This document shows positions 5,219-64,000 of a DNA stretch of 64,000 nt, one piece after another. The notes under the pieces were generated by a model. The model made no database searches, was not told the origin of the DNA, and saw nothing but the letters and a program-made list of their open reading frames with translations. Origin of the DNA: an uncultured bacterium (GTDB taxonomy: Bacteria > Hydrogenedentota > Hydrogenedentia > Hydrogenedentales > Hydrogenedentaceae). Position 1 is the first letter of the stretch. Each line of letters opens with the position of its first letter. The translations under genes were made by a program, and so were the position numbers. The stretch covers positions 1,615 through 65,614 of the forward strand of contig CAKZKR010000043.1 in assembly GCA_937124615.1 (NCBI GenBank), read 5' to 3'.

Positions 5219-6529
5219 ATGAAACATGTGCATATACATACACTTGGTTGTCGATTAAATCAAGCAGAATCTGATGTAATCCTCCAGAAACTTTATGAGT
5301 TGGGCTATGAAATTGTTCCCAAAGATACCCCTGCGGACCTATGTGTTATACATACTTGTGCTGTAACTCATGAAGCAGAAGTAAAATGCAGGAAAGTTAT
5401 CCGTCAAACCATACGGCAAAATCCAGATGCTGAAATTGTTGTAATCGGTTGTTATGTCGAAAAAGATATAGAAGTACTAAAAAACATACCCGGAATAGAC
5501 CTTATCGTTGATAATAAACGCAAAATGGACTGGTTCTCTCACATAAAAAGCGAAAAGCAAAGTTCCCCTTCCCTTTTAACAGGAACCCAATGGAACTTTC
5601 CCTCATTAAATAATTGCCTTTGTGCAATGCCTGTTTCTATTCCGGGTTTTCACCGTGCAAACATCAAAATTCAGGAAGGCTGTAATAGTTATTGTTCTTA
5701 TTGTATCATCCCTTACCTCCGCGGTCCTTCCCGTTCACGAGATGTAAAAGAGATATTGCAAGAAATAGGTTGGCGGGTTGATGCGGGAGTAAAAGAAATT
5801 GTTCTAACAGGTATTAACATAGGAGATTACAGTTTTGAAGGTAAAAATTTAATAGACCTATTAGACATGATCAACAAACAATTTGGTAATCAAATACGAA
5901 TCCGATTAAGTTCCATTGAGATTAACTCGTTAAATAAAGAATTTCTTGTCCGAATGCAAGATAATCAATATCCCCTTGTCCCATACCTTCATATTCCCCT
6001 TCAATCGGGCTCGAATACAATATTAAAACAAATGAATCGCAAGTATACCCGAGAAGTTTATCAAGACTTCGCTATGCAAGCGATAACTACGGTGCCGGAT
6101 ATTGGGATTAGTACAGATATACTTGTTGGATTTCCCGGCGAAACAGATGCATTATTCAATGAAACAGTAGAATTTCTTGAACATCTCCCTATATTTTTCT
6201 TACATATTTTCCCATATTCACCACGGGAAGGGACTCCTGCTTATTCTTTTACGGAACAAATTCCAACTCTTGAAATTAACCGTCGAGTTGATTTATTAAT
6301 TAAATTAAGTAAAAAGAAAAGGAATTTATTTTACAGAAAATCGCTTAATACTATAAGAGAAGTATTGTTTGAAACAAAGGAAAAGGAATATTGGCAAGGA
6401 TATACGGATAACTATATTCGTGTCCTGACAAAAAGTTGTGAACCCTTAGAGAACAAACTATGCAATATACGATTGGACAATATTTCTATAGACCACATGA
6501 ATGGTACCGTTATAAATATACTCCGTTAA
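5219..6529 (+). CDS. MtaB-like radical SAM methylthiotransferase (tRNA t6A37 methylthiotransferase family)
   Basis: The N-terminal MTTase domain reads VHIHTLGCRLNQAESD. The radical-SAM motif CNSYCSYC is present and the C-terminus has a TRAM-like domain. This is a second MiaB-family paralog. Confidence 0.75.
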   Translation: MKHVHIHTLGCRLNQAESDVILQKLYELGYEIVPKDTPADLCVIHTCAVTHEAEVKCRKVIRQTIRQNPDAEIVVIGCYVEKDIEVLKNIPGIDLIVDNKRKMDWFSHIKSEKQSSPSLLTGTQWNFPSLNNCLCAMPVSIPGFHRANIKIQEGCNSYCSYCIIPYLRGPSRSRDVKEILQEIGWRVDAGVKEIVLTGINIGDYSFEGKNLIDLLDMINKQFGNQIRIRLSSIEINSLNKEFLVRMQDNQYPLVPYLHIPLQSGSNTILKQMNRKYTREVYQDFAMQAITTVPDIGISTDILVGFPGETDALFNETVEFLEHLPIFFLHIFPYSPREGTPAYSFTEQIPTLEINRRVDLLIKLSKKKRNLFYRKSLNTIREVLFETKEKEYWQGYTDNYIRVLTKSCEPLENKLCNIRLDNISIDHMNGTVINILR

Positions 6530-6547
6530 GACAAAAAAGGATACCTT

Positions 6548-7384
6548 ATGTCATCATTAAAAGAACAAGCACTTCAAAAGGAAGCCGAATTAAAGAAATA
6601 TTTGCAAAAATTTAAATCTATTGCAATAGCATACTCTGGTGGTGTGGATTCAACTTATCTTGCGTCTGTCACCCATGATGTTTTAGGGGAACGATGTGTT
6701 CTGCTTATTGCAGACACCCCCAGTTTTCCTCGTGAAGAATTAAAAGAAGCCCTCGAATTAGCAAAGCAACAAGAATGGAATGTTTCAATAATATATCCCA
6801 ATGAATTTCGAGATGAACGCTTTTTAAAAAATGACTCGCATCGCTGTTACTACTGTAAAAGTGAACTTTTTAAAACCATGATAGAATTTACAAAACAAAA
6901 CCGTATTGAAACATTTGCCTGTGGTGAAAATGCGGATGACTTGTTGGACACAACTCGAACAGGAAAATTAGCCATAAAAGAGTTTGGGGTCATCACTCCC
7001 CTGTCGGAAATAGGCATGTCTAAACAGGAAATTCGTATACTCAGTGAAATACGCCATTTACCTACTGCCGATAAACCCAGTTTTGCCTGTCTCTCTTCTC
7101 GAATACCTACAGGAACTCCGATTACTATAGAAGACCTGAAACGGATAGAAAACGCGGAGAAAATATTAAAATCTCTTGGGTTTAAACAGTATCGTGTGAG
7201 AAACCATAAGAATCTTGCTCGTATCGAGGTGGAAGTAGCAGACCTCACACGACTCATTTCCGAACCAGTTCGTTCTAAAGTATTGCAAGAGTTAAAAGAG
7301 TTAGGATATCGATTTGTTACTGTTGATATTGCAGGCTATCGAACAGGCAGTACCGCAGTATCGGACGGTGATATTACTAGATAG
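6548..7384 (+). CDS. PP-loop ATP pyrophosphatase of the LarE-like / TIGR00268 family
   Basis: A PP-loop SGGVDS is present (AIAYSGGVDSTYLA). Conserved Cys residues occur in CYYCK and FACLSSR. Confidence 0.6.
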   Translation: MSSLKEQALQKEAELKKYLQKFKSIAIAYSGGVDSTYLASVTHDVLGERCVLLIADTPSFPREELKEALELAKQQEWNVSIIYPNEFRDERFLKNDSHRCYYCKSELFKTMIEFTKQNRIETFACGENADDLLDTTRTGKLAIKEFGVITPLSEIGMSKQEIRILSEIRHLPTADKPSFACLSSRIPTGTPITIEDLKRIENAEKILKSLGFKQYRVRNHKNLARIEVEVADLTRLISEPVRSKVLQELKELGYRFVTVDIAGYRTGSTAVSDGDITR

Positions 7385-7385
7385 G

Positions 7386-9116
7386 TCATCGTATTGTATA
7401 TTTTTTCACTGTGGTATCTGAACTTCTGATAATCAACCGTTGATTTTCAGGTGAATACTGAAAATCTTTAACGGGTTCATTGTCTTTCATTATCTCTAAT
7501 GGTTGTTGAGGATATAAAATACGAAGAATATGGGGCTTTCGGACTCCTTCCATTTCAACAGTTAAAACCGGTTTCTCATGGACATTTACGGTCATCTCTC
7601 CTGAATAATCTGGGTAATAAACCTTAAAAGTCGAATTCCCACCTGGATAAATATTTAAGACCAAATATCCTTCCCAGTCCTTTTCTCCAATACCTGTATA
7701 GGAACGACTGATATACATAGGAATAATGGCACCTTCTTTTATAAAAACAGGATACTTATCTATATCATAAGAATCGGTCATTGTCTTTCCTCCCTCAATA
7801 ACCTGTGTATCATTAAACCACCATCTCCATTTCCCTTCTGGAAAAACAACTGTTCTTGCACTAATTTTTTGGTATATGGGAGCAACCAGTAAATAGTCAC
7901 CAAACATATATTGATATTTTCCCTCTTTCAAGGGGCGCATTAAAGGTTTCCCTCCCTCTGACCATTGAGCCACATAACTATACATATATGGCAATAACTC
8001 TGTATGTAGCCATGAATATCGACGGACAAGGTCCAACTCGATGTCCGACCTTTTCCACATTCTCCGTTCGCCATGTCCTCCATTGAGAAACAATCCACAG
8101 AAAGTGGAAAACTGTGTCCAACGAATATACAAATCCGCTGGAATAGGTTCGGCTCCATGATACCCTGCTATATCAGAGCCGACAACACAATAACCTAATC
8201 TCGCACTACGAAGAATACAATAAATGGCCCGTTCCAATCCCCGTTTTTCATAATCCCATTCATGCTTATTATCTCCTACCCAATTAACCGTAGAAGCATT
8301 CAACGGAGCGAAACCTTCAGGATGGGCCCATGGAGTAGGGGAATCTATCGAACGGGCTAATGTAACAAATTCAGGATGTATAGACCGGCCATATTTGAGT
8401 TCTTCACGATAATAATAATCCATATATTTACGAGGAGTCATTATCCCTTTATAACTACGAATATAAAACATAGGAAGAGGACCAAGAGATGTTCTCAATA
8501 AGGTTGCAGAATCGTCTAATTTCCACCCGTCCACACCTAAATCCAATACCTGATTTTGTAATGAACGCCACCACTGCATTGCTTGCGGATTGGTATAATC
8601 AATAAAACCTCCCCTACCTTTCCACCACTTAATCTGGACGCCATTGCCTACCAAAAAACCTTTGCTTTTGGCTTCCTGATAAAAGTGTTCCGCATCCTTA
8701 ATTGCGGTATCCGGATTCTCACTATTAATCATTGGAGTCATCCAGAGTACAACACGAATATTTCGGTCCTGAAAATATTTAAAGAATTCTTTTGGATTCG
8801 GAAACTGTTTTTCATCCACAGTAAAATCATTATAGCGAAGGGACCAGGGACTATCTATCAAAACCGTGCGGACAGGAAAATCATGCTCAACATAACCATT
8901 TATAAGTTCTAATGTAAAATCTGCGGTATTCTGGTCGTCTTCCCAAACCCAGCATTCCAGAACCCATGAAGGGATTTTCGTTCTTTCTATATATCGATAG
9001 TAATTAAGTGGATAAATACCCCAAAAGGGGAAAATAACCCATAACCAAATAAACAGTAAAAACACTACCAGAATAATACCGGCCCATTTCAGGATTTTCA
9101 GTAAAATCTTCAACAC
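7386..9116 (-). CDS. Membrane-anchored TIM-barrel glycoside hydrolase (GH31-like)
   Basis: It has an N-terminal transmembrane helix. The motif GVDGWKLDDSA resembles the GH31 nucleophile region (DG-W-x-D). The product is 576 aa. Confidence 0.45.
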   Translation of the reverse strand: MLKILLKILKWAGIILVVFLLFIWLWVIFPFWGIYPLNYYRYIERTKIPSWVLECWVWEDDQNTADFTLELINGYVEHDFPVRTVLIDSPWSLRYNDFTVDEKQFPNPKEFFKYFQDRNIRVVLWMTPMINSENPDTAIKDAEHFYQEAKSKGFLVGNGVQIKWWKGRGGFIDYTNPQAMQWWRSLQNQVLDLGVDGWKLDDSATLLRTSLGPLPMFYIRSYKGIMTPRKYMDYYYREELKYGRSIHPEFVTLARSIDSPTPWAHPEGFAPLNASTVNWVGDNKHEWDYEKRGLERAIYCILRSARLGYCVVGSDIAGYHGAEPIPADLYIRWTQFSTFCGLFLNGGHGERRMWKRSDIELDLVRRYSWLHTELLPYMYSYVAQWSEGGKPLMRPLKEGKYQYMFGDYLLVAPIYQKISARTVVFPEGKWRWWFNDTQVIEGGKTMTDSYDIDKYPVFIKEGAIIPMYISRSYTGIGEKDWEGYLVLNIYPGGNSTFKVYYPDYSGEMTVNVHEKPVLTVEMEGVRKPHILRILYPQQPLEIMKDNEPVKDFQYSPENQRLIIRSSDTTVKKYTIR

Positions 9117-9145
9117 TATTTAACCTTTCATAATGGGTAGGGTAA

Positions 9146-11680
9146 TTATACCCCCTTACGATTTAATTGAATAAACATTTCCTGCGTTCGGTAAGATTTT
9201 GGAACATAATCAGGAAGCGGTTTTATTTGCTGATGATAGGCATCTAAAAAACTAAACGGCTGGGGGAAATAACTCTCCTCCAATTCTGCGGGAGGAACAA
9301 TCCAATTAGGAGAACCAATAACACAAATAGGAGCATCTAAATAATCAAAGGCTATTTGGCTCAGTTGTCCTGCTACAGTATGCAAATAACTACCTCTCTC
9401 GCATGCATCGCTTGCAAGGATAAGTTTTCCTGTTTTCTTAATAGACTCTACTATAGGATCATAGTTAATTGGAACAAGTGTCTGTCCATCAATCAATTCC
9501 ACACTGATACCATATTCATTCTCAAAACGCTTAACTGCATCCCATGCTCTATAAAGGGTGGCCCCAAAAGTCATGATGGTCAGGTCTTTTCCCTCTTTGA
9601 TAATTTCAGGCTCACCAATGGGCAGTCTGTAATATTCTTTGGGCACTCCTTGTTTATGGAAAATTTCTACTTGATTGTAGAGTCTTTGACTTTCAAAAAA
9701 GATAACAGGGTCACTTCCACTCAAAGCAGAAGCAATAAGTCCCTTAGCAGAATAAGGAGTTGCAGGAAAAACAACTTTCAGTCCCGGCACATGTGCACAT
9801 AATGCAGTCCAATCTTGAGAGTGTTGGGCTCCGTATTTTGCTCCTACAGAAACACGAAGGACCACCGGCATTTTTAATTCCCCTGCAGACATGGCTTGCC
9901 ATTTGGGCAACTGATTAAAGACCTCATCCCCTGCTCGACCCATAAAATCACAATACATCAATTCTACTAACGGCCTACCTCCTTCCATAGCCACACCAAC
10001 TGCTGTACCTACAATAGCTCCTTCAGATATAGGAGAATTGAAAAGGCGATGGTAAGGAATGGCTTCTGTTAATCCCTGATATACAGCAAAAGCACCACCC
10101 CAATCTCGATTTTCTTCGCCGTAAGCAATAAGCCTCGAATCGTGATAGAAGTGATAGAGTATCGACTCAAAAATGGCTTCTCCAAAAGTAACGGCCTGTG
10201 TCGCTTTTAATGGGTTTCCATTTTCATCAATACCTACACGCAATTTTTTTTCTATCTTTTTCAAACGGGGATTATCTTCATAGGGGATTAATACATCAGA
10301 TGGACTCTCAAGTCCAGGGAGATCTTTTTCCTCCCGATTTGAAAACATCAAGTTTGCAAGCCCTGAAGTTTGCGTCAACTTCATACGAGGTGAAATTTCT
10401 AAACTTGTAGCCCGTTGACATGCTTTTCTAACTTTCTTTTGAGCATACGCTTTTATCTTTTCAAGTTCTGTCTCCGTTGCCAATCCGGCGGACTTAATTT
10501 TTTCTGCGAATTCAACAATAGGGTCAACCGATTTCCACATTTCAACTTCTTGATGGTCACGATAGGAAGACTGATCACTGGGAGAATGTCCTGACTGACG
10601 ATAACATATTACATCCAGTAACACAGGTCCCTGTCCATTTTCTATTAATGGGATTTTTCGACGGTATGCATCTGCGACGGCCAATGGATTGTTTCCGTCA
10701 ACAACTTCCGCATGCATATTCTCTGTATTCAGCCCTGCACCTATACGAGCAAGCCGTTCAAAACCTGCTGTTTCTCCGATAGGCTGACCCCCCATTCCAT
10801 AAAAATTGTCCATAAAATTAAATATGATAGGTAAGCCACCTTTATGTTCGTCGTCCCATAAAGTTTTATACTGTCCCATTACAGAGAACATCATTGCTTC
10901 CCACACAGGTCCACAGGCAACAGATGCATCTCCAATGTTCGCAATTGTAACACCGGGTTGTTTGCGAGCCTTCCGGTACAGTGCAGAACCTGTGGCTATA
11001 TCCGCACTACCCCCTACGATCGCATTGGCAGGGTATACCCCAAAAGGAGTAAAGAACGCATGCATGGAACCTCCCATCCCCTTATTAAAACCATACTCAC
11101 GACCAAAAATCTCTGCTAAAAGTCCATATAGAAGAAAATCAACGCCTAATTCTTCTTCTTCGTTAGTTTTTAACAAAACCTTGTTTTTTTCTCCCTTAAT
11201 AACGAGTGGAGACCCATCCGGTTCATAGCTTTCTACAACTTGTAATATTTTACCATCCCAATAGGTTTTCATAATTTCCGTTAAACGATTTCCCGTTAAA
11301 TCATGGATAGCACGCAGTCCCTTAGCGATAATTTCTCCATGACTCCGATGACTACCAAAAATATGGTCATGAACACGAAGGAAAACGCATTCACCGACAG
11401 CACTACCTTCCTGTCCAATTGAAAGGTGTGCCGGTCCCGCATGTTGATACTCGATACCTTCATACGAACCCAATTTCTTAATCTTGTCTAACATGGTCTC
11501 AAATTCACGGATAATCACCATATCACGAAATATTCTAATGGCTACTTCGGGTGTAATCCCTTCATTGGCCTCTAATTCTTGTTTTAGGCTACGCTGGTAT
11601 TGATTTACAGGGATACTTTTTACCTTAATTTCTCCTTTTTTTCGCATTTCTTCAGGAGATATAAGAATTCTCTTTGTCAT
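9146..11680 (-). CDS. Thiamine-diphosphate-dependent 2-oxoacid dehydrogenase E1 component with fused alpha and beta subunits
   Basis: The 844 aa product has an N-terminal half with an E1-alpha TPP-binding region (GDASVACGPVWEAM). The C-terminal half is an E1-beta transketolase-like pyrimidine-binding domain. Confidence 0.75.
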   Translation of the reverse strand: MTKRILISPEEMRKKGEIKVKSIPVNQYQRSLKQELEANEGITPEVAIRIFRDMVIIREFETMLDKIKKLGSYEGIEYQHAGPAHLSIGQEGSAVGECVFLRVHDHIFGSHRSHGEIIAKGLRAIHDLTGNRLTEIMKTYWDGKILQVVESYEPDGSPLVIKGEKNKVLLKTNEEEELGVDFLLYGLLAEIFGREYGFNKGMGGSMHAFFTPFGVYPANAIVGGSADIATGSALYRKARKQPGVTIANIGDASVACGPVWEAMMFSVMGQYKTLWDDEHKGGLPIIFNFMDNFYGMGGQPIGETAGFERLARIGAGLNTENMHAEVVDGNNPLAVADAYRRKIPLIENGQGPVLLDVICYRQSGHSPSDQSSYRDHQEVEMWKSVDPIVEFAEKIKSAGLATETELEKIKAYAQKKVRKACQRATSLEISPRMKLTQTSGLANLMFSNREEKDLPGLESPSDVLIPYEDNPRLKKIEKKLRVGIDENGNPLKATQAVTFGEAIFESILYHFYHDSRLIAYGEENRDWGGAFAVYQGLTEAIPYHRLFNSPISEGAIVGTAVGVAMEGGRPLVELMYCDFMGRAGDEVFNQLPKWQAMSAGELKMPVVLRVSVGAKYGAQHSQDWTALCAHVPGLKVVFPATPYSAKGLIASALSGSDPVIFFESQRLYNQVEIFHKQGVPKEYYRLPIGEPEIIKEGKDLTIMTFGATLYRAWDAVKRFENEYGISVELIDGQTLVPINYDPIVESIKKTGKLILASDACERGSYLHTVAGQLSQIAFDYLDAPICVIGSPNWIVPPAELEESYFPQPFSFLDAYHQQIKPLPDYVPKSYRTQEMFIQLNRKGV

Positions 11681-55412: not shown

Positions 55413-55628
55413 GGATTTTATACTCCTATAACTAGGTTAAAGGTTTTAATTTGATGAATCATTATACTTACCGTTCGTTATACAATATTTATAATACTAT
55501 CTGCAAATCAAAATTGCAAATTTTTTATTATCTCACAAGAAATACCTCGTATTTTTAATTTTATGGTTTTCTGCTACTCAGATTTTAGCAATTTTATAAT
55601 AATCAACCCAAATAAGCACCACAAAAAA

Positions 55629-56834: not shown

Positions 56835-58598
56835 ATGCAACACAGCGTCCATTTTATAATCCTTTTTCTATTTATTTTATCAACTACGATAAACATATCC
56901 GCTCAATGGCAATCCCCATCTAAGGGACCCAAAATAGACTATACCACATTCGTTGAATACGAAAGCATAAAACCCGAAACACCCGTTAGAATTGCCATAC
57001 AATTTCAGTTAGAACCGGAATGGCACATCAACAGCAATAAACCCCTTGATGAATTTCTGATACCGACAGAAATCCAATTTGAAGAAAATGCCTTTATACA
57101 AATCAAAAAGATTATCTATCCTCCCTCTAAAGAAGTAAAGTTATCTTTTTCTAACGAACCGCTCTCTGTATTCGAAAACCTTTTTTTAATTGGCTTTGAA
57201 ATTGTAGTTCTATCTGATAACAAAAACCGTAGTTCCATAGAATTATCCGGTTCATTAAATTACCAACCTTGTAATGACCGACAATGCCTTCCCCCCTCTT
57301 CTATACCTATAAAAGTATCATTAAATATGGGCGATAATCTCATCCCTGCAAACGAAGAAACACAACAAAAGATAAAATTGATACCGTGGGATACAGCAGA
57401 ATCCCTTCCCGAAACAAAAATAACACAGGAAAAAGTTTTTACGGAAGAAACTTCAAAACAAACACCCATCCCAATTCCTGCTCAAGGGAATTGGGAAGAA
57501 CGAATTAAAGATTTTCAATTCGCTTCAAGATTAGATGGGTATGCTAACCGTGATGAATTTATCCGTTTTATCGATGCATCAGAACAGGAAACTTCAACTT
57601 CTACTTCGCGAAAATCAAGGTTAAACATCCTTTCGCTACTATTTATAATCCTTATTGGCGGACTTGCATTAAACCTTACCCCTTGCGTTTTACCTGTAAT
57701 CCCGCTGAACCTCGCTATCATCGGTGCTGGGGCTCGTGCAGGGTCGAAGATACGCGGTTTTCTGTTAGGTTTAGCCTATGGCTTGGGCATTTCCCTGGTC
57801 TATGGGGGTCTGGGAATTGCAGTTGTGCTGGGTTTTTCAAAGACATTCGGTTCTATCAATTCTACTTACTGGTTTAACGGCCTGATAACTTTACTATTTA
57901 TCGTGCTGGCCTTAGCCATGTTCGACTTTATCGTTATTGACTTTTCTCGTTTCCAGGCGTATATTGGCATTCGGAAAAATCCAAAAGGGAGTTTCTTTGT
58001 GGCACTATTCATGGGCGGAGTGTCCGCATTATTAGCCGGTGCTTGCGTAGCACCTGTTGTTATATCCACGATTCTTCAATCACAGGATTTATACAGTCAG
58101 GGATATACCTCTGCCCTTCTACTTCCTTTCTTATTAGGTATCGGAATGGCTTTACCATGGCCTGTATTAGGTGCAGGAATGACCCTTCTACCTAAACCCG
58201 GCAAATGGATGGAATATGTCAAGTATGGCTTTGGTATCTTCTTACTTGGCCTTGCCGTTTACTATGGATACACAACTTACACCCTCTTTAATGCAGGCAG
58301 TATCAAAACCGAACAAATTACTCAAGGCTGGTATACCTCATTGGCGGAAGGACTTGATGAAGCACAAAAAAACAATCAGCCGGTAATCATTGACTTCTGG
58401 GCTACATGGTGTAAAAACTGCATTGTTATGAACAAGACCGTTTTACCGGACGAAACAGTCAAACAAAAACTGAATAATTTTGTCAAAATTAAATATCAAG
58501 CAGAAAATCCTGACGAACCAACAGTGCGAAAAGTCCTTGACCACTTTGAAGTGTTGGGGCTACCCACATTTATTATATTGAAACCCAGACAAAAATAA
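56835..58598 (+). CDS. dsbD: Thiol:disulfide interchange protein DsbD
   Basis: An N-terminal periplasmic alpha domain has a Cys pair (CNDRQC). The multi-helix core has Cys residues in LTPCVLPV and GACVAPV. The C-terminal thioredoxin domain has WATWCKNC. Confidence 0.85.
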   Translation: MQHSVHFIILFLFILSTTINISAQWQSPSKGPKIDYTTFVEYESIKPETPVRIAIQFQLEPEWHINSNKPLDEFLIPTEIQFEENAFIQIKKIIYPPSKEVKLSFSNEPLSVFENLFLIGFEIVVLSDNKNRSSIELSGSLNYQPCNDRQCLPPSSIPIKVSLNMGDNLIPANEETQQKIKLIPWDTAESLPETKITQEKVFTEETSKQTPIPIPAQGNWEERIKDFQFASRLDGYANRDEFIRFIDASEQETSTSTSRKSRLNILSLLFIILIGGLALNLTPCVLPVIPLNLAIIGAGARAGSKIRGFLLGLAYGLGISLVYGGLGIAVVLGFSKTFGSINSTYWFNGLITLLFIVLALAMFDFIVIDFSRFQAYIGIRKNPKGSFFVALFMGGVSALLAGACVAPVVISTILQSQDLYSQGYTSALLLPFLLGIGMALPWPVLGAGMTLLPKPGKWMEYVKYGFGIFLLGLAVYYGYTTYTLFNAGSIKTEQITQGWYTSLAEGLDEAQKNNQPVIIDFWATWCKNCIVMNKTVLPDETVKQKLNNFVKIKYQAENPDEPTVRKVLDHFEVLGLPTFIILKPRQK

Positions 58599-58615: not shown

Positions 58616-60028
58616 ATGGAAGAAACTCTATTATACAGATTAATAGTTGAACATTTTTTTACCGTTATCGGTTTCTTACTCGCCGTTTTTCTTATTCTAA
58701 AAATTATCAGTGAACATCGCCGTCCCGGGGGAGCAATATCCTGGCTAATTGCCATTATTTTTGCACCGTATATCGGTGTACCTCTCTACTTTATACTCGG
58801 TGGAAGAAAAATTACAAAAAAAATAAACAGAAAAGAACCCCTTTACACCACACCGAATACAAAACCTGAACAGCCTGTAAAAAATCCAATTGAACGAGTT
58901 CTTTTATCCTCAGGAATGCCTTCCATAAGACAGACATTTTCCACGGTGTTCTTATTTGACGGTATCGATGCCTTCCATAAATTAATCGAGATTATCAACC
59001 ATGCAGAAGAATATATTTACTGCACTACCTTTATTTTAGGCAAAGACGAGACCGGATTCCGTATCATCAATGCATTAGCCGAAAAAGCAAAACAAGGGGT
59101 TCGAGTCTGCTTATTATTAGATAGTCTTGGTTGTTTAACTGTTACACAAAAAATGCTCCATCCCCTCCTTGATTCCGGTGGAGAAGTAGGCTTCTTTTTA
59201 CCCGTTCTCCCTTTTCGACGAAAATGGTCTGCAAACCTCCGCAACCATCGGAAAATCGTGATTGTAGATGGTAAAATTTCCATGATAGGGGGAATGAATC
59301 TTTCCAATAATTTTATGGGACCGAATCCCTCTCCAAAAAGATTCTTAGACAATGTCGTTTTCTTAACAGGGGAACCCATTTGCGATATTGAACAAGTATT
59401 TCGGAGCGACTGGTACTTCACAACAGAAAAAGAATTGCCCGAACCTAATATCCCTTCTTTTCTTACCGAGCCAAATATGAATACGCTCCCCGGACGGGTG
59501 CAGGTTGTCGCCAGTGGACCGGATGTCCCGGAAGACACACTATACGATGCTATTTTAACCGCCTGTATGGAAGCAAAAGAGAGAATCTGGATTGTTACTC
59601 CTTATTTTGTTCCGGACGAGCCCATTTTGAAAGCACTCACCCTACAGGCTCGAGCCGGACTGGATGTATCCATTATCCTACCCCAAAAATCCAACCATCT
59701 CATTGCAGACTTTGCACGAGGACCTGCCTTACGCGAACTGCTCAAAAGTGGAGCCAACATCTGGTTTTACGAAAAAGGTATGGTTCATTCAAAGTTATTG
59801 GTATTCGACCGCTATCTTGCTGTTACTGGCTCACCTAATCTTGATATTCGCAGTATGTATCTCAACTTTGAAATAGCCCTGTTCCACTACTCCCCGAATG
59901 AAATCGATGCCGTTTCAGGCTGGATCTATCAACTAATAAATAATTCACGGAAAGTATCTGTATTACCTGAAAAAACCTTCCAGATATGGATGGAAAACCT
60001 TAGCCTTCTTATAGCCCCTCTGATATAA
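58616..60028 (+). CDS. cls: Cardiolipin synthase (phospholipase D superfamily)
   Basis: It has two N-terminal transmembrane helices and two HKD motifs (HRKIVIVDG and HSKLLVFD). Confidence 0.85.
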   Translation: MEETLLYRLIVEHFFTVIGFLLAVFLILKIISEHRRPGGAISWLIAIIFAPYIGVPLYFILGGRKITKKINRKEPLYTTPNTKPEQPVKNPIERVLLSSGMPSIRQTFSTVFLFDGIDAFHKLIEIINHAEEYIYCTTFILGKDETGFRIINALAEKAKQGVRVCLLLDSLGCLTVTQKMLHPLLDSGGEVGFFLPVLPFRRKWSANLRNHRKIVIVDGKISMIGGMNLSNNFMGPNPSPKRFLDNVVFLTGEPICDIEQVFRSDWYFTTEKELPEPNIPSFLTEPNMNTLPGRVQVVASGPDVPEDTLYDAILTACMEAKERIWIVTPYFVPDEPILKALTLQARAGLDVSIILPQKSNHLIADFARGPALRELLKSGANIWFYEKGMVHSKLLVFDRYLAVTGSPNLDIRSMYLNFEIALFHYSPNEIDAVSGWIYQLINNSRKVSVLPEKTFQIWMENLSLLIAPLI

Positions 60029-60241: not shown

Positions 60242-60889
60242 CTAATTCCTTCCTCCACCAGAGCCTCCACCATTACCACCTCCATTATTATTTCCACCCC
60301 CACTATTTTCTCGATTATTCCAGCGGAAGATATTACCAAGCCACTCACGAATTCTCTCACGGACCATCTCTCGAATCACATTTCCCACCCCTTGAAGATT
60401 GTCAATTACTCGAACTTTTACCTCTTTTTCAACACTATCAGAAACTTTTATTTTAATAGACGAAGCCAACGGTGAAGTATTAGATAGCGACCCTAATACA
60501 GAATCATCTATCTTCACAGAGATATATTCCCTATCCCAGGGTCCCGCAGAAGTTCCTTCCTTCGGGTCTACGAGTACCCATTCATTTGCAGGTTCAACTG
60601 TAAACTCCATTTCCGTAGCAAATGGAAACCGATTCCAGACACGAACCACTCTGTCCGTACCTTTCTCAATGTCTTTTTTCGTAAAAACAAGATTTTTAGG
60701 CGCATAACCCAATTGCAATCCAATCCACCATTGAGGTGTCTGCTTGGCACTCATCAGGTCCTTTGTCAATTCGTTCAACTGCTCACAGCCTTGTAGCATC
60801 ATTAACATAGCAACACAGACACTCAATACTACTGCATACCTTTTCATTGTTTTAATTCCTCTGTTAGAGTTTCTCCTTTTGCCCAGCAA
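60242..60889 (-). CDS. Hypothetical lipoprotein with a Gly/Asn-rich C-terminal tail
   Basis: The signal peptide has a lipobox (MLQGCEQ). The C-terminus is NSGGGNNNGGGNGGGSGGGRN. It is transcribed divergently from the cas9-like gene. Confidence 0.5.
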   Translation of the reverse strand: MLGKRRNSNRGIKTMKRYAVVLSVCVAMLMMLQGCEQLNELTKDLMSAKQTPQWWIGLQLGYAPKNLVFTKKDIEKGTDRVVRVWNRFPFATEMEFTVEPANEWVLVDPKEGTSAGPWDREYISVKIDDSVLGSLSNTSPLASSIKIKVSDSVEKEVKVRVIDNLQGVGNVIREMVRERIREWLGNIFRWNNRENSGGGNNNGGGNGGGSGGGRN

Positions 60890-61042
60890 AATCCTTAACT
60901 ACATATAAATAACGACAACAAAAAAAACCATTACAAACATTTTACAAAAAAATTTTTTTCCCCCCACAATTATGTGTAAAATAAAAAAATTAAATAAATC
61001 TCATTCACAACTTAAATCAATTTAAAAAAAGGTATCCTAACT

Positions 61043-64000
61043 ATGGGAAACGGGACAATTTTCAGTTTCGATTTAGGGACAGGAAGCATTGCAACCTGCG
61101 TCCGTCAAGACGAAGAAATCAAATACATCCATGTTGAAACCCTCCCCGGCGAATTTGCCACCCTAAAAGAGACACGAGAACGGCGACGCCAAATCCGAAC
61201 ACGCCTCGCTCACAAACAACGCGAAGAGTGGTGGAAAATACATGCAAAAGAAGCCGGTATCGAAGTGTTAGAAACGGGACATTTAGACGAAAAAGGAAAC
61301 TTCATCTCACCCGACCCACGACTAACCTGCGAATTTTCAAAAAAAGGCAACCCTACGATTTACAACTCCTTGCTTCTTCGTATCGCACTTCTACAAGGTA
61401 AAAAATTAGAAGGTTGGCAGATTTTCAAAGCCATCTGGAACGCTATTCAAAGACGCGGGTATGATGAAAACATCCCGTGGAAACACAAATTAGAAGCCGA
61501 AAAAACGGAAGATGATAACGAACAAGAAAACTCAAAACAAACCAAAGGGAAGAAAAGCAAAAAGAAGGAAGATGCGAACTCCGAAGACGAAGAACAGAAA
61601 ATTAGACAAGCGGTTATCAAATATAAAGAAAAATTAAACAATACATTTGGAGACAAAGAAGAATACAAATATCCTTCCTACTTAGAAGCATACCTTTTAG
61701 GAATCTGGTCGCCGGACGAGCCCGATAATTTAACAAAAACCATATCCGAAAACCCGGAACCTATACGAAATAAAGATGGAAATATAAAACTTATAACACC
61801 TACAGAACTCGTAGAAAAGGAATTAAAACAACTTCTTGTCAAAGTAGGGGAACAGAATGAATATATCAAAAAGAATTTAAATTATATCCTCTATGGTCCT
61901 TCTGGATGTCGTTATGGCGCCTACATTCTTCCTAAATACCGCGGATACATGGGAAAAGACTGGGAATGGCAGGGACTCCTCTCTCAAAAAACCCCACGCT
62001 TCGATAACCGCATCGTTTACAAATGCCGGCTCATGCCTCGCTTCAATGTCTGCAAAAGAAAAGATCTCCTTTCCCAAGAAGTCATTTTCTTAATGAAATT
62101 AAAAAATTTCAGGTTTGTAGATGCAGAAACCGGTGAAGAAAAAATGCTTACCCCTGAGCAAATACAAAAAATGTTCAACGATTTCCAAAATACCCTAAAA
62201 ATCAATAACCGTGAACTAAAAAAATACTTAAAAGAAAACTTCAAAGGAGAAATACATCCCTCTTTTCCCGCTATTGACGCACCCAACACAAAAGGAAGGG
62301 CTTCCTTCTGCCGACCCACATTAAAAATTATCAAAGAGATTATTCTATCCGGCAAATCTCCTCATACTTTATATCAAGAATACACTTCCTCTAACACCAA
62401 TACAGACCCTAAAAAAGGACTTATTAACAATGACTATAAATTCCTCCTAAAAATGCCCACAGAGTGGGAAAACTTCCATATACCTGACGAAAGAGAAGAT
62501 GAGGCACAACTTAACGAAGATGAACGAATTAAAGTAATTTACAACATACTATCTAAGATTACAAATCCTGTTGTAAGACATCGGTTATTATTGTTCTACC
62601 GAAAATTACAATATCTTAAACAAGAGTTTGGAATACCCAATATAGTCATGCTCGAATTTGCCCGTGATCCTGAAGAACTACTCGCTGGCGAAGAACGAAA
62701 GAAAAAATACTTAAAACTTCAAAAAGAAAATCGGCAGAAAAAAGAAAAGGCAGAAAAAATTTATCAAGAATTAAAAAATGGAAATGTTAACTTAAAAGGT
62801 CGCTCTATTTTACTTAAAATTCAACTATGGCAAGAACAAAATGGAATAGACCCCTATTCAGGAGAACAAATCCCTCAAACAAAAATTAACCTCTATGAAA
62901 TTGACCACATCGTTCCGCGAGAAATGGGAGGCTCTGATGCCTACTTCAATAAAGTTTTAACTTCACCTGAAAAGAATCGTGAAAAGGCAAAGAGAACCCC
63001 TTATCAAATGTTCAAAGGGAATATCTCTGATTGGAAAAAATATCTGAACACTATAGAAAAAATCACAAACTTAAGTAAGAAAAAAAGAGCACTACTCACA
63101 TCAGAAAATCCAGAAGAACTTATTGAAAGATACACCCATTTAGCAGAAACCGCCTATATCTCACGGCTTGCACAAAAAATCTGTCATCTCTTCTTCGGAT
63201 GGGAACAACTAACAAAAGGCTCACAAAGAAAAGTTTTCGTAGTTTCGGGTGCCTTTACAAGAAAAATTAGAACCATCTTTGAACTGGACCGAATTCTATA
63301 TCCTGACCTTTCTGATGAAGAATACAAAGAATTACTCACGAAAGGAGAAATCCAGAAGAAAAACCGGGACAATCCGCGTCACCATGTCTTGGACACTATC
63401 GTGCTTTCTATCATCCCTGAAATTAAATACAACCCTGAACGAGAAAAAGACGATTATCCCGTATGGTTCAATAAAGAATATTGTCGCCAATACATTGAAA
63501 AATGTTTCCCAAGACCTATTCGTTTCGTAAAAGCCAAATTAGCAGAAACCATTTACGGCTTACGAGAAAGAAATGATTATACAGAAGAGGAAAAGAAAAA
63601 AGGCAAAAAACAATATGTCTTTGTAACACGATTTGGAACAGGAACTACCCTAAAAGAGTATGATGACTTAAAATTTGCTAAAAAAAATGTAGAATCCATA
63701 TACAGTTATAACATTCGACAAGATCTTATGAAAAAATTAGAAGAAAAACCAGCACCCGAAGAATGGAAAGTCTTCCTTCACAACTACCGTGCCGGCGGAA
63801 AACCTAAAAAAATTCTGGTAAAAGCGAGCAGTTATATTGATGAAGAAGAAGTTCAAAAATTTTTAAACGGAGAAATTCCTAATTTAGGTGAGTTTATTAA
63901 AGGAAAAATGCCCGGACAATTCCTAAAGCAAAAAAAGGAGTCTAACGGATATTTTGTTTATAAAGATGAAAAAGGAAAGTGGCAACGCGAAATTATCTAC
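61043..64000 (+). CDS. cas9: Cas9-type RNA-guided endonuclease (type II CRISPR effector), 5'-partial-at-3' (open to the window end, 986 codons visible)
   Basis: The motifs were read directly. RuvC-I is FSFDLGTGSIATCV, with Asp10 at 61070. The Arg-rich bridge helix is ETRERRRQIRTRLAHKQREEWW (aa 42-63). RuvC-II is IVMLEFARD, with Glu538 at 62654. HNH is YEIDHIVPREMGGSDAYFNKVLTSPEKNREKAKRTPYQ, with Asp621/His622 at 62903. RuvC-III is RHHVLDTIVLS, with His780 at 63380. No stop codon occurs before position 64000, and the ORF track omits it for that reason. Confidence 0.85.
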   Translation, partial: MGNGTIFSFDLGTGSIATCVRQDEEIKYIHVETLPGEFATLKETRERRRQIRTRLAHKQREEWWKIHAKEAGIEVLETGHLDEKGNFISPDPRLTCEFSKKGNPTIYNSLLLRIALLQGKKLEGWQIFKAIWNAIQRRGYDENIPWKHKLEAEKTEDDNEQENSKQTKGKKSKKKEDANSEDEEQKIRQAVIKYKEKLNNTFGDKEEYKYPSYLEAYLLGIWSPDEPDNLTKTISENPEPIRNKDGNIKLITPTELVEKELKQLLVKVGEQNEYIKKNLNYILYGPSGCRYGAYILPKYRGYMGKDWEWQGLLSQKTPRFDNRIVYKCRLMPRFNVCKRKDLLSQEVIFLMKLKNFRFVDAETGEEKMLTPEQIQKMFNDFQNTLKINNRELKKYLKENFKGEIHPSFPAIDAPNTKGRASFCRPTLKIIKEIILSGKSPHTLYQEYTSSNTNTDPKKGLINNDYKFLLKMPTEWENFHIPDEREDEAQLNEDERIKVIYNILSKITNPVVRHRLLLFYRKLQYLKQEFGIPNIVMLEFARDPEELLAGEERKKKYLKLQKENRQKKEKAEKIYQELKNGNVNLKGRSILLKIQLWQEQNGIDPYSGEQIPQTKINLYEIDHIVPREMGGSDAYFNKVLTSPEKNREKAKRTPYQMFKGNISDWKKYLNTIEKITNLSKKKRALLTSENPEELIERYTHLAETAYISRLAQKICHLFFGWEQLTKGSQRKVFVVSGAFTRKIRTIFELDRILYPDLSDEEYKELLTKGEIQKKNRDNPRHHVLDTIVLSIIPEIKYNPEREKDDYPVWFNKEYCRQYIEKCFPRPIRFVKAKLAETIYGLRERNDYTEEEKKKGKKQYVFVTRFGTGTTLKEYDDLKFAKKNVESIYSYNIRQDLMKKLEEKPAPEEWKVFLHNYRAGGKPKKILVKASSYIDEEEVQKFLNGEIPNLGEFIKGKMPGQFLKQKKESNGYFVYKDEKGKWQREIIY

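Follow-up and report, generated by a model that had tools for sequence, protein, structure and literature searches.

A Candidatus Hydrogenedentota cas9 gene as the very probable start of a compact type II CRISPR-Cas locus with tracrRNA and array beyond cas2

In type II-A systems, a long form of the tracrRNA autoregulates the cas9 promoter. In type II-C systems, a promoter sits in every repeat, new spacers are taken up at the last repeat, and the additional repeat beside the oldest spacer is more heavily mutated (PMC12080349). In N. meningitidis and C. jejuni, array transcription runs opposite to that of the cas operon (PMC3737331). Type II-D systems, reported to be common in DPANN archaea (PMC12669027), are built around compact Cas9 enzymes of 600-970 aa guided by an sgRNA of ∼130-150 nt with a pseudoknotted scaffold (PMC12339737, PMC12669027, PMC9755519), and their adaptation module comprises cas1, cas2, and cas4 (PMC12669027).

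The DNA considered here, referred to as the window, is a stretch of 64,000 nucleotides that ends inside a cas9 gene and therefore cannot show what follows it. An initial annotation reported neither adaptation genes nor an array on the 5′ side of cas9 and offered three readings: a II-C-like layout with cas1, cas2, and the array downstream, a stand-alone Cas9, or a system with its guide RNA encoded elsewhere. Comparison with related contigs indicates that cas9 very probably opens a complete, compact type II CRISPR-Cas locus that continues past the 3′ end of the window. The spacer upstream of it is probably an ordinary promoter region. Coordinates of all features are collected in Table 1.

Table 1. 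Features of the window and of the adjoining locus. Positions past 64000 are window-equivalent coordinates taken from the near-identical locus L001, not from the window's own continuation.
Feature	Position	Strand	Basis or remarks
dsbD	56835-58598	+	Pfam/NCBIfam
Cardiolipin synthase gene (cls)	58616-60028	+	Pfam/NCBIfam
Lipoprotein gene, 201 aa	60242-60847	-	Signal peptide, LQGC lipobox; divergent from cas9
Intergenic region between lipoprotein gene and cas9	60848-61042		Presumed two divergent promoters; bounded by the gene starts on either side
Small hairpin TTTTGC...GCAAAA in the lipoprotein 5′ UTR	60877-60891	-	Seen in RNA fold
Candidate sigma-70-like cas9 promoter	60941-60970	+	TTTACA, 18 nt, CACAAT; consensus match only
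Candidate sigma-70-like lipoprotein promoter	60952-60980	-	TTTACA, 17 nt, AAAAAT; consensus match only
cas9, first 986 of 1078 codons	61043-64000	+	ORF cut by window end
cas9 stop	∼64279	+	L001, window-equivalent
cas1	64289-65188	+	L001, window-equivalent
cas2	65185-65574	+	L001, window-equivalent
tracrRNA gene, ∼75 nt	65575-65649	-	L001, window-equivalent; abuts cas2 stop codon
CRISPR array start	65702		L001, window-equivalent; 36-nt repeats, 30-nt spacers

Cas9 and its 5′ flank

The Cas9 fragment encoded in the window contains the Pfam domains HNH_4 and RuvC_III and scores 885.7 bits with the NCBIfam model NF049971 and 231.5 bits with TIGR01865 (cutoff 100). A full-length protein in the protein database, P0001 (1078 aa), is 99% identical to it, and hundreds of further relatives of ∼1030-1100 aa occur in Hydrogenedentota, Elusimicrobiota, Endomicrobium, Verrucomicrobiota, and other groups, with one member of the family in an archaeal MAG (Micrarchaeaceae, L009). 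An alignment of 35 relatives shows no variation at residues D10, E538, H622, N645, H780/H781, and D784; the protein thus has the split RuvC and the HNH domain of a type II effector with the catalytic residues intact, and it is predicted to be an active nuclease. The solved structures nearest by sequence are Cas9 chains of ∼1050-1150 aa, presumably II-C enzymes of the N. meningitidis and Geobacillus types. A sequence search of solved structures gave no match to the N-terminal 480 residues, and no CxxC zinc-ribbon motifs are present.

The genes on the 5′ side are those named in the initial annotation, namely a divergently transcribed lipoprotein gene with a Gly-rich tail followed by cls and dsbD, as translation and Pfam/NCBIfam matches confirm. 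Beyond cls and dsbD are genes for a YdjC-family deacetylase, a FadB-like enzyme, and a thiolase. The lipoprotein, with its Gly/Asn-rich C-terminal tail (SGGGNNNGGGNGGGSGGGRN), matches no Pfam or NCBIfam family above cutoff. Its start is placed at ATG 60847, as called in the public contig and preceded by AGAGGAA, which gives an intergenic region of 195 bp beginning at 60848. The previously described spacer of 153 bp from 60890 derives from the TTG start of the longest mechanical ORF; its length and boundary are corrected here, and its description as A/T-rich and free of repeats stands. The GC content is 25% in 60848-61042 and 21.6% in 60890-61042, compared with 37.8% for the window, and between 60700 and 61200 no direct repeats occur, the inverted repeats there being two in number, both weak and 12-13 nt long. 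A scan of the intergenic region with Rfam gave no match at E ≤ 1.

Two candidate promoters, one for cas9 and one for the lipoprotein gene, lie back to back in this region, their TTTACA boxes forming inverted repeat I1. Comparison of the window with two Candidatus Hydrogenedens relatives (L005 and L006) showed that an A/T block around ATAAAATA, ∼50 nt 5′ of the cas9 ATG, is partly kept in both, and that the block CCTCTGTTAGAGT..TCCTTTTGCCC.GCAAAA, in the hairpin region of the lipoprotein 5′ UTR, is conserved in L006. Two divergent promoters are a plausible and sensible reading of the intergenic region, and the 195-bp spacer may plausibly be an ordinary promoter region serving cas9 and the lipoprotein gene on opposite strands. 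The shared divergent promoter proposed earlier is retained at that strength, its evidence being consensus matches that are not enriched over shuffled sequences (4 vs 2.5 ± 1.8).

The same neighbourhood is found in relatives. In L005, Candidatus Hydrogenedens terephthalaticus, homologs of ydjC (89% identity), dsbD (78%), and cls (79%) lie directly upstream of cas9, and in L006 a lipoprotein homolog with 76% identity adjoins cas9. This synteny identifies the window as Candidatus Hydrogenedentota and indicates that the locus has been kept at the same chromosomal site in the Candidatus Hydrogenedens lineage.

The locus past the window end

The exact lipoprotein sequence led to an ENA contig, k141_183982 (228.8 kb; locus L001), which overlaps the window for 13,759 nt with 17 mismatches, all inside cas9; the 10.8 kb of flank upstream of cas9 is identical in the two. 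Nonsynonymous differences between these otherwise identical strains form a cluster within cas9 (63680-63752; aa 880-904). On L001, genes for Cas9 (1078 aa), Cas_Cas1 (299 aa), and CRISPR_Cas2 (129 aa) follow one another in one direction. The Cas1 matches the type II (NMENI) model TIGR03639 with 159 bits (cutoff 120), and the Cas2 matches TIGR01573. The contig extends 391 bp past cas2, comprising a 128-nt gap and then an array of four repeats of ATTATAACAAATCTGAAATCTTTGTGGCATCAAAAC with 30-nt spacers, inside which the contig breaks. A search with the CRISPR repeat recovered two metagenome contigs from another sample, L082 and L083, neither of which covers cas9. L083 carries cas2, the tracrRNA region as in L001, and seven repeats, with spacers unlike those of L001. 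On L082, which covers the distal array end, the next genes encode a hypothetical protein, a family-2 glycosyltransferase, and a GNAT acetyltransferase. Judged visually on the opening residues alone, an ORF further along L082 resembles trpE.

The arrangement recurs in a comparative set of 80 related genomic loci, or 81 counting L001. Directly 3′ of cas9, cas1 is present in 76/81 loci and cas2 in 70/81, and the loci lacking cas1 are on contigs that stop before its position. Arrays with a 66-nt period lie ∼1.4 kb 3′ of cas9 across related loci, with cas1 and cas2 in between, and nearly all of the 80 related loci have the order cas9-cas1-cas2-tracrRNA-array. The downstream, II-C-like layout suggested earlier is therefore what is seen on the near-identical contig and across the family.

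Within the window, neither an array nor a tracrRNA had been overlooked by eye, whether in 60890-61042 or elsewhere. Tandem Repeats Finder (TRF) returned only short repeats of two to four copies with periods of 5-18 nt, none array-like; a repeat finder, allowing up to 120 nt between copies, detected no direct-repeat family; no copy of the known CRISPR repeat occurs in the window with up to 3 mismatches allowed; and a single tRNA is the only Rfam match. Two weak candidates were set aside. The best match in the window to the tracrRNA covariance model described below (111-164, 13.7 bits, E = 0.05) covers only the hairpin and T-run part and is probably a terminator-like hairpin. The segment 55566-55600, considered as an orphan repeat or second anti-repeat, matches the reverse complement of the repeat at 26/35 positions, which is the best chance score in the window, and its left half is not kept in L005, whose repeat differs by one base.

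The window itself therefore contains no cas1, cas2, array, or tracrRNA, as would be expected of an orphan Cas9 in this strain, with its guide encoded elsewhere or with another role, and the 17 differences within cas9 show that the window and L001 assemblies are not strictly the same molecule. Yet the window is silent on the sequence past its end, its 10.8-kb flank is 100% identical to that of a contig bearing cas1, cas2, tracrRNA, and array, and the junction of cas2, tracrRNA, and array recurs in a second sample on L083. L005 and L006, at the same chromosomal site, likewise have cas1 directly 3′ of cas9, as do most loci overall. A cas9 lacking cas1, cas2, and an array is thus not what these contigs contain, and an orphan Cas9 in the window's strain is extremely unlikely. 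The cas1-cas2-array segment on L001 and the cas2-array junction on L083 refute the stand-alone reading, and the tracrRNA and array found in the same locus on L001 refute the suggestion of a guide RNA encoded elsewhere. The apparent solitude of this cas9 is an edge effect of a 64-kb window and has little biological import.

The absence of mobile-element genes around a Cas9 set among envelope genes had also been considered noteworthy. The first genes past the arrays of ten related loci, and past the distal end of the present array, are housekeeping genes; the exceptions are ORFs without a Pfam match (L002, L017), a phage-type integrase (L074), and a marginal PDDEXK_4 match (L014), none of them Cas4. 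With housekeeping genes upstream of cas9 and again beyond the distal array end, the whole locus is bounded by housekeeping genes. A compact chromosomal type II locus of this kind, free of mobile-element neighbours, is normal for this Cas9 family, and in L005 and L006 it occupies the same site.

Array, tracrRNA, and their orientation

Between cas2 and the array, the cas9 strand carries GTTAAGACGCCACAAAGA, which is the repeat segment ...TCTTTGTGGCATCAAAAC in inverted form. RNA from the opposite strand would consist of the anti-repeat UCUUUGUGGCGUCUUAAC, a long hairpin, and a U-run directly adjoining the stop codon of cas2. The 5′ part of the crRNA repeat, GUUUUGAUGCCACAAAGA, is predicted to pair with this anti-repeat, and in a cofold, repeat and tracrRNA form this duplex together with the terminal hairpin, with an energy of -47.4 kcal/mol. 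In ∼45/55 loci, the best inverted match to the locus's own repeat falls between cas2 and the array, and across related loci the anti-repeat usually lies 25-75 nt before the first repeat.

Covariation supports both parts of this RNA. Anti-repeats form 10.33 of 11 core pairs with their cognate repeats compared with 7.24 with non-cognate repeats, a cognate value reached by none of 5000 permutations, and in L001 all 11 core pairs are formed (11/11). An alignment of 31 tracrRNA regions has an invariant CUUAAC-like linker, a hairpin with a ACCUCUGC...GCACG interior, and a T-run. Compensatory changes occur in 13/14 predicted hairpin pairs; 83% of hairpin cells are paired, compared with 57% in shuffled alignments and 31-42% with partners slid, and the hairpin covariation score is 0.708 vs 0.237. 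A covariance model built from this alignment (76 positions, one 14-pair hairpin) gave 66 matches in related loci, including many loci outside its training set, nearly all of them on the strand opposite cas9 and between cas2 and the array. On L001 it matches positions 317-391 with 58.2 bits. Array and tracrRNA thus lie together in one locus on L001, and neither lies inside the window.

Rfam gave no match to the tracrRNA locus at E ≤ 1, so a conserved, covarying tracrRNA structure that Rfam leaves undetected is documented here for a widespread Cas9 family. Elusimicrobium minutum had no detectable anti-repeat in the 2013 survey of Chylinski et al. (PMC3737331), and the covariance model finds a tracrRNA in the MAG of an uncultured Elusimicrobium sp. 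(L028).

In that survey, predicted anti-repeats of types II-A and II-C lie mostly upstream of cas9 (PMC3737331), and L053, L068, and L081 each have an additional tracrRNA match of the covariance model immediately 5′ of cas9 and on the same strand as that gene, so the intergenic region 5′ of cas9 could be regarded as a place for the tracrRNA gene. The evidence from 60848-61042 is negative on each point. Run without filters, the covariance model has no match there, similarity to the CRISPR repeat is at best that of shuffled sequences in either orientation, and RNA folding is at shuffle level on both strands (z -0.56 and +1.23). The region contains no CRISPR repeat, anti-repeat, or tracrRNA, and with a well-supported tracrRNA already present between cas2 and the array in L001, there is next to no likelihood that the tracrRNA is encoded upstream of cas9. 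Autoregulation of the cas9 promoter by a 5′-extended tracrRNA was also considered and rejected, the longest word shared by leader and intergenic region being 9 nt, a length equalled in 132/300 shuffles.

Three features favour antisense transcription of array and tracrRNA relative to cas9: a T-run comes after the conserved hairpin on the strand opposite cas9 and not on the other, the G-U pairs of the hairpin and the L001 duplex would turn into A-C mismatches on the cas9 strand, and the GTTTTG... start and TGTTATAAT end of the repeat are found only in the antisense orientation. In the crRNA sense, each repeat ends with TGTTATAAT, a perfect extended -10 box. The 3′ ends of family repeats have the consensus TGnTAnAAT, with TATAAT matched at four or more of its 6 positions in 38/44 repeats. 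The opposite orientation, with the array read in the cas9 direction and ATTATAAC as the 5′ end of the repeat, would agree with the leader-like look of the A/T-rich stretch that separates cas2 from the first repeat, and with the AATCCT motif beside the cas2-proximal repeat, which is conserved in several relatives. However, an anti-repeat read in that direction would run into the array rather than into a hairpin and terminator. The last, cas2-distal repeat on L082 is mutated (...CATCAAGCAC), in agreement with the published statement on the extra repeat of type II-C arrays (PMC12080349). Transcription of the array in the cas9 direction is accordingly regarded as very unlikely.

With the array and tracrRNA read antisense to the cas operon, each repeat would drive its own crRNA from its TGTTATAAT box, and the predicted crRNA would carry a GUUUUGAUGCC... 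3′ handle; the strand, start sites, and repeat-embedded promoters of this scheme are predictions from sequence. Cas9 would then use the crRNA:tracrRNA dual RNA to cut DNA. Cas1 and Cas2 probably insert new spacers at the cas2-proximal end of the array, a polarity suggested by sequence features: the mutated distal repeat, the cas2-proximal spacers that differ between L001 and L083, and the AATCCT motif all fit the type II-C picture without proving it. Eight 24-nt spacer seeds had no protospacer in a viral contig collection, so that no PAM could be derived, and the spacers have no match in the window (at least 9 mismatches).

The order of terminal repeat, ∼25-75 nt, and anti-repeat on one strand is tightly conserved across several phyla. 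The tracrRNA may, as a tentative and doubtful suggestion, form the array's final transcription unit, with the extended -10 box of the repeat nearest cas2 as its promoter; if it lacks a promoter of its own, its supply would be tied to the promoter type that makes each crRNA. The gap between repeat and anti-repeat of this strain contains a second perfect TATAAT, and given this element an independent tracrRNA promoter is equally possible. A crRNA:tracrRNA pair can be specified for an uncharacterised Candidatus Hydrogenedentota Cas9, which makes direct design of an sgRNA possible.

Comparison with types II-C and II-D

The locus looks like type II-C. The cas genes called on L001 with Pfam are cas9, cas1, and cas2; csn2 and cas4 are absent. 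Cas9 falls in the size range of ∼1000-1100 aa, Cas1 is of the NMENI type (TIGR03639), repeats are 36 nt and spacers 30 nt long, and the tracrRNA is short with a single hairpin. The array lies 3′ of cas2 and is apparently transcribed against the cas operon, every repeat ends in an extended -10 box, a mutated extra repeat stands at the far array end, and the locus sits among housekeeping genes (PMC12080349, PMC3737331). Other features depart from II-C. The alignment with solved, presumably II-C Cas9 structures is confined to the RuvC-II/HNH/RuvC-III core (profile positions ∼490-800), the tracrRNA lies between cas2 and the array rather than upstream of cas9 and has a single long 3′ hairpin, and the current NCBI model names the protein Cas9d instead of plain Cas9.

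That model, NF049971, 'type II CRISPR RNA-guided endonuclease Cas9d', matches the full-length protein with 929.1 bits (cutoff 375) over model positions 1-985 of 986 and matches 35/35 aligned relatives, a result that tests NCBI's Cas9d label and not a phylogeny. The presence of a family member in the archaeal MAG L009 is a further point in common with II-D. The features published for II-D differ from those found here. The 1078-aa Cas9 is larger than the compact II-D effectors, and in place of a long scaffold the tracrRNA extends only ∼57 nt past an 18-nt anti-repeat core and forms one hairpin. Cas4 was not found in L001, in the upstream part of the window, beyond 10 related arrays, in L009, or in L082. 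With neither the compact effector and long scaffold nor cas4 present, the locus is not filed as II-D. There is a naming conflict, in which NF049971 says Cas9d and gene content, protein size, and tracrRNA fit II-C, and the case flags the NCBI label as one applied to a family that resembles II-C. The conclusions on the completeness of the locus are independent of its subtype.

Close counterparts from the same protein family are loci of Elusimicrobiota/Endomicrobium, Verrucomicrobiota, and Vampirovibrionales, whose Cas9 proteins have 31-61% identity to this one (best tblastn segment) and which have the same order of cas9, cas1, cas2, tracrRNA, and array. Their tracrRNAs share one architecture with the present one, consisting of the anti-repeat, CUUAAC, a hairpin with ACCUCUGC...GCACG, and a U-run. 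These loci differ from that of the window, which belongs to Candidatus Hydrogenedentota, in host phylum and in the sequences of repeat and anti-repeat, which covary.

tracrRNA genes in related loci

The tracrRNA gene lies in L001, a contig near-identical to the window that continues from cas9 through cas1, cas2 and tracrRNA into the array. It had no match in Rfam release 15 at E <= 1, although conservation and covariation of the tracrRNA extend over five phyla or more. For Elusimicrobium minutum, no detectable anti-repeat was reported in an early survey (PMC3737331). Some relatives carry a second match to the tracrRNA model, a covariance model built from aligned tracrRNA regions of related loci, including L053, L068 and L081 (see table) and also L017, L021, L028 and L050, each of which has two copies near or flanking the array. 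Judged by these predicted copies, the number and position of tracrRNA genes differ among members of the Cas9 family.

Coordinates of tracrRNA features and of a hairpin in the lipoprotein gene leader
Feature	Location	Strand	Position
tracrRNA	L001 317-391 (window-equivalent 65575-65649)	minus	
Extra tracrRNA-model match	L053 5819-5893	cas9 strand	just 5′ of cas9
Extra tracrRNA-model match	L068 5827-5902	cas9 strand	just 5′ of cas9
Extra tracrRNA-model match	L081 1478-1553	cas9 strand	just 5′ of cas9
Small hairpin, UUUUGC UGG GCAAAA	window 60877-60891	minus	lipoprotein gene 5′ UTR

Within the window, the best match to the tracrRNA model (111-164, + strand, 13.7 bits, E = 0.05) covers only the hairpin and T-run portion of the model and is thus probably an ordinary terminator-like hairpin.

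Repeat look-alike and array ends

A sequence in the fadB-ydjC intergenic region (55566-55600) agrees with the reverse-complemented CRISPR repeat at 26/35 positions, a likeness that extends along its entire length. An orphan repeat or a second anti-repeat was considered and rejected, because chance alone gives an equally high top score in the window and the left half of the sequence is not kept in L005, a Candidatus Hydrogenedens relative whose repeat differs by one base. The likeness is most likely a coincidence inside a conserved promoter or operator region.

The repeat is common to L001 (1-264) and two contigs of another metagenome (L083 1690-2122, L082 6908-7255). L083 also shares the cas2-tracrRNA junction, but its cas2-proximal spacers are entirely different from those of L001. 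At the cas2-distal end, seen in L082, the terminal repeat is mutated (...CATCAAGCAC), and an AATCCT motif adjoining the cas2-proximal repeat is kept in several relatives. Together, these features fit a model in which new spacers would enter the array at the cas2-proximal end.

cas9 alleles and neighboring genes

The window and L001 are identical across the 10.8 kb upstream of cas9, and all 17 of their differences fall inside the gene (61531, 62756-62770 and 63680-63752). Thirteen of these are packed into the 73 bp of 63680-63752, where amino acids 880-904 include eight nonsynonymous and two synonymous codons; the others result in N163K, K572E and E576N. This confinement, beside an identical flank, suggests that Cas9 has undergone localized recombination or diversifying selection, or else that the assembly of mixed strains produced an artefact.

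The lipoprotein leader hairpin and its neighboring Shine-Dalgarno region are kept in L006, a Candidatus Hydrogenedens MAG. In L006, cas9 (5827-9392) comprises two overlapping ORFs, 5827-8925 and 8922-9392, a split due either to a frameshift, which would make the gene a pseudogene, or to misassembly. L009, labeled archaeal (Micrarchaeaceae), has a ribbon-helix-helix/PIN toxin-antitoxin pair (784-1493) directly 5′ of cas9, and its cas9-cas1-cas2-tracrRNA order matches that of bacterial loci of the family.

Comparison with known subtypes

NCBIfam labels this Cas9 family (window 61043-64000; full-length protein P0001) as Cas9d, at 929 bits. Four cysteines are conserved in Cas9 (C19, C328, C337 and C423), and it contains no CxxC motifs. 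Despite the Cas9d label, the locus differs from published II-D systems and fits II-C better, because its Cas9 has 1078 amino acids, cas4 is absent from the locus, and the tracrRNA is short.
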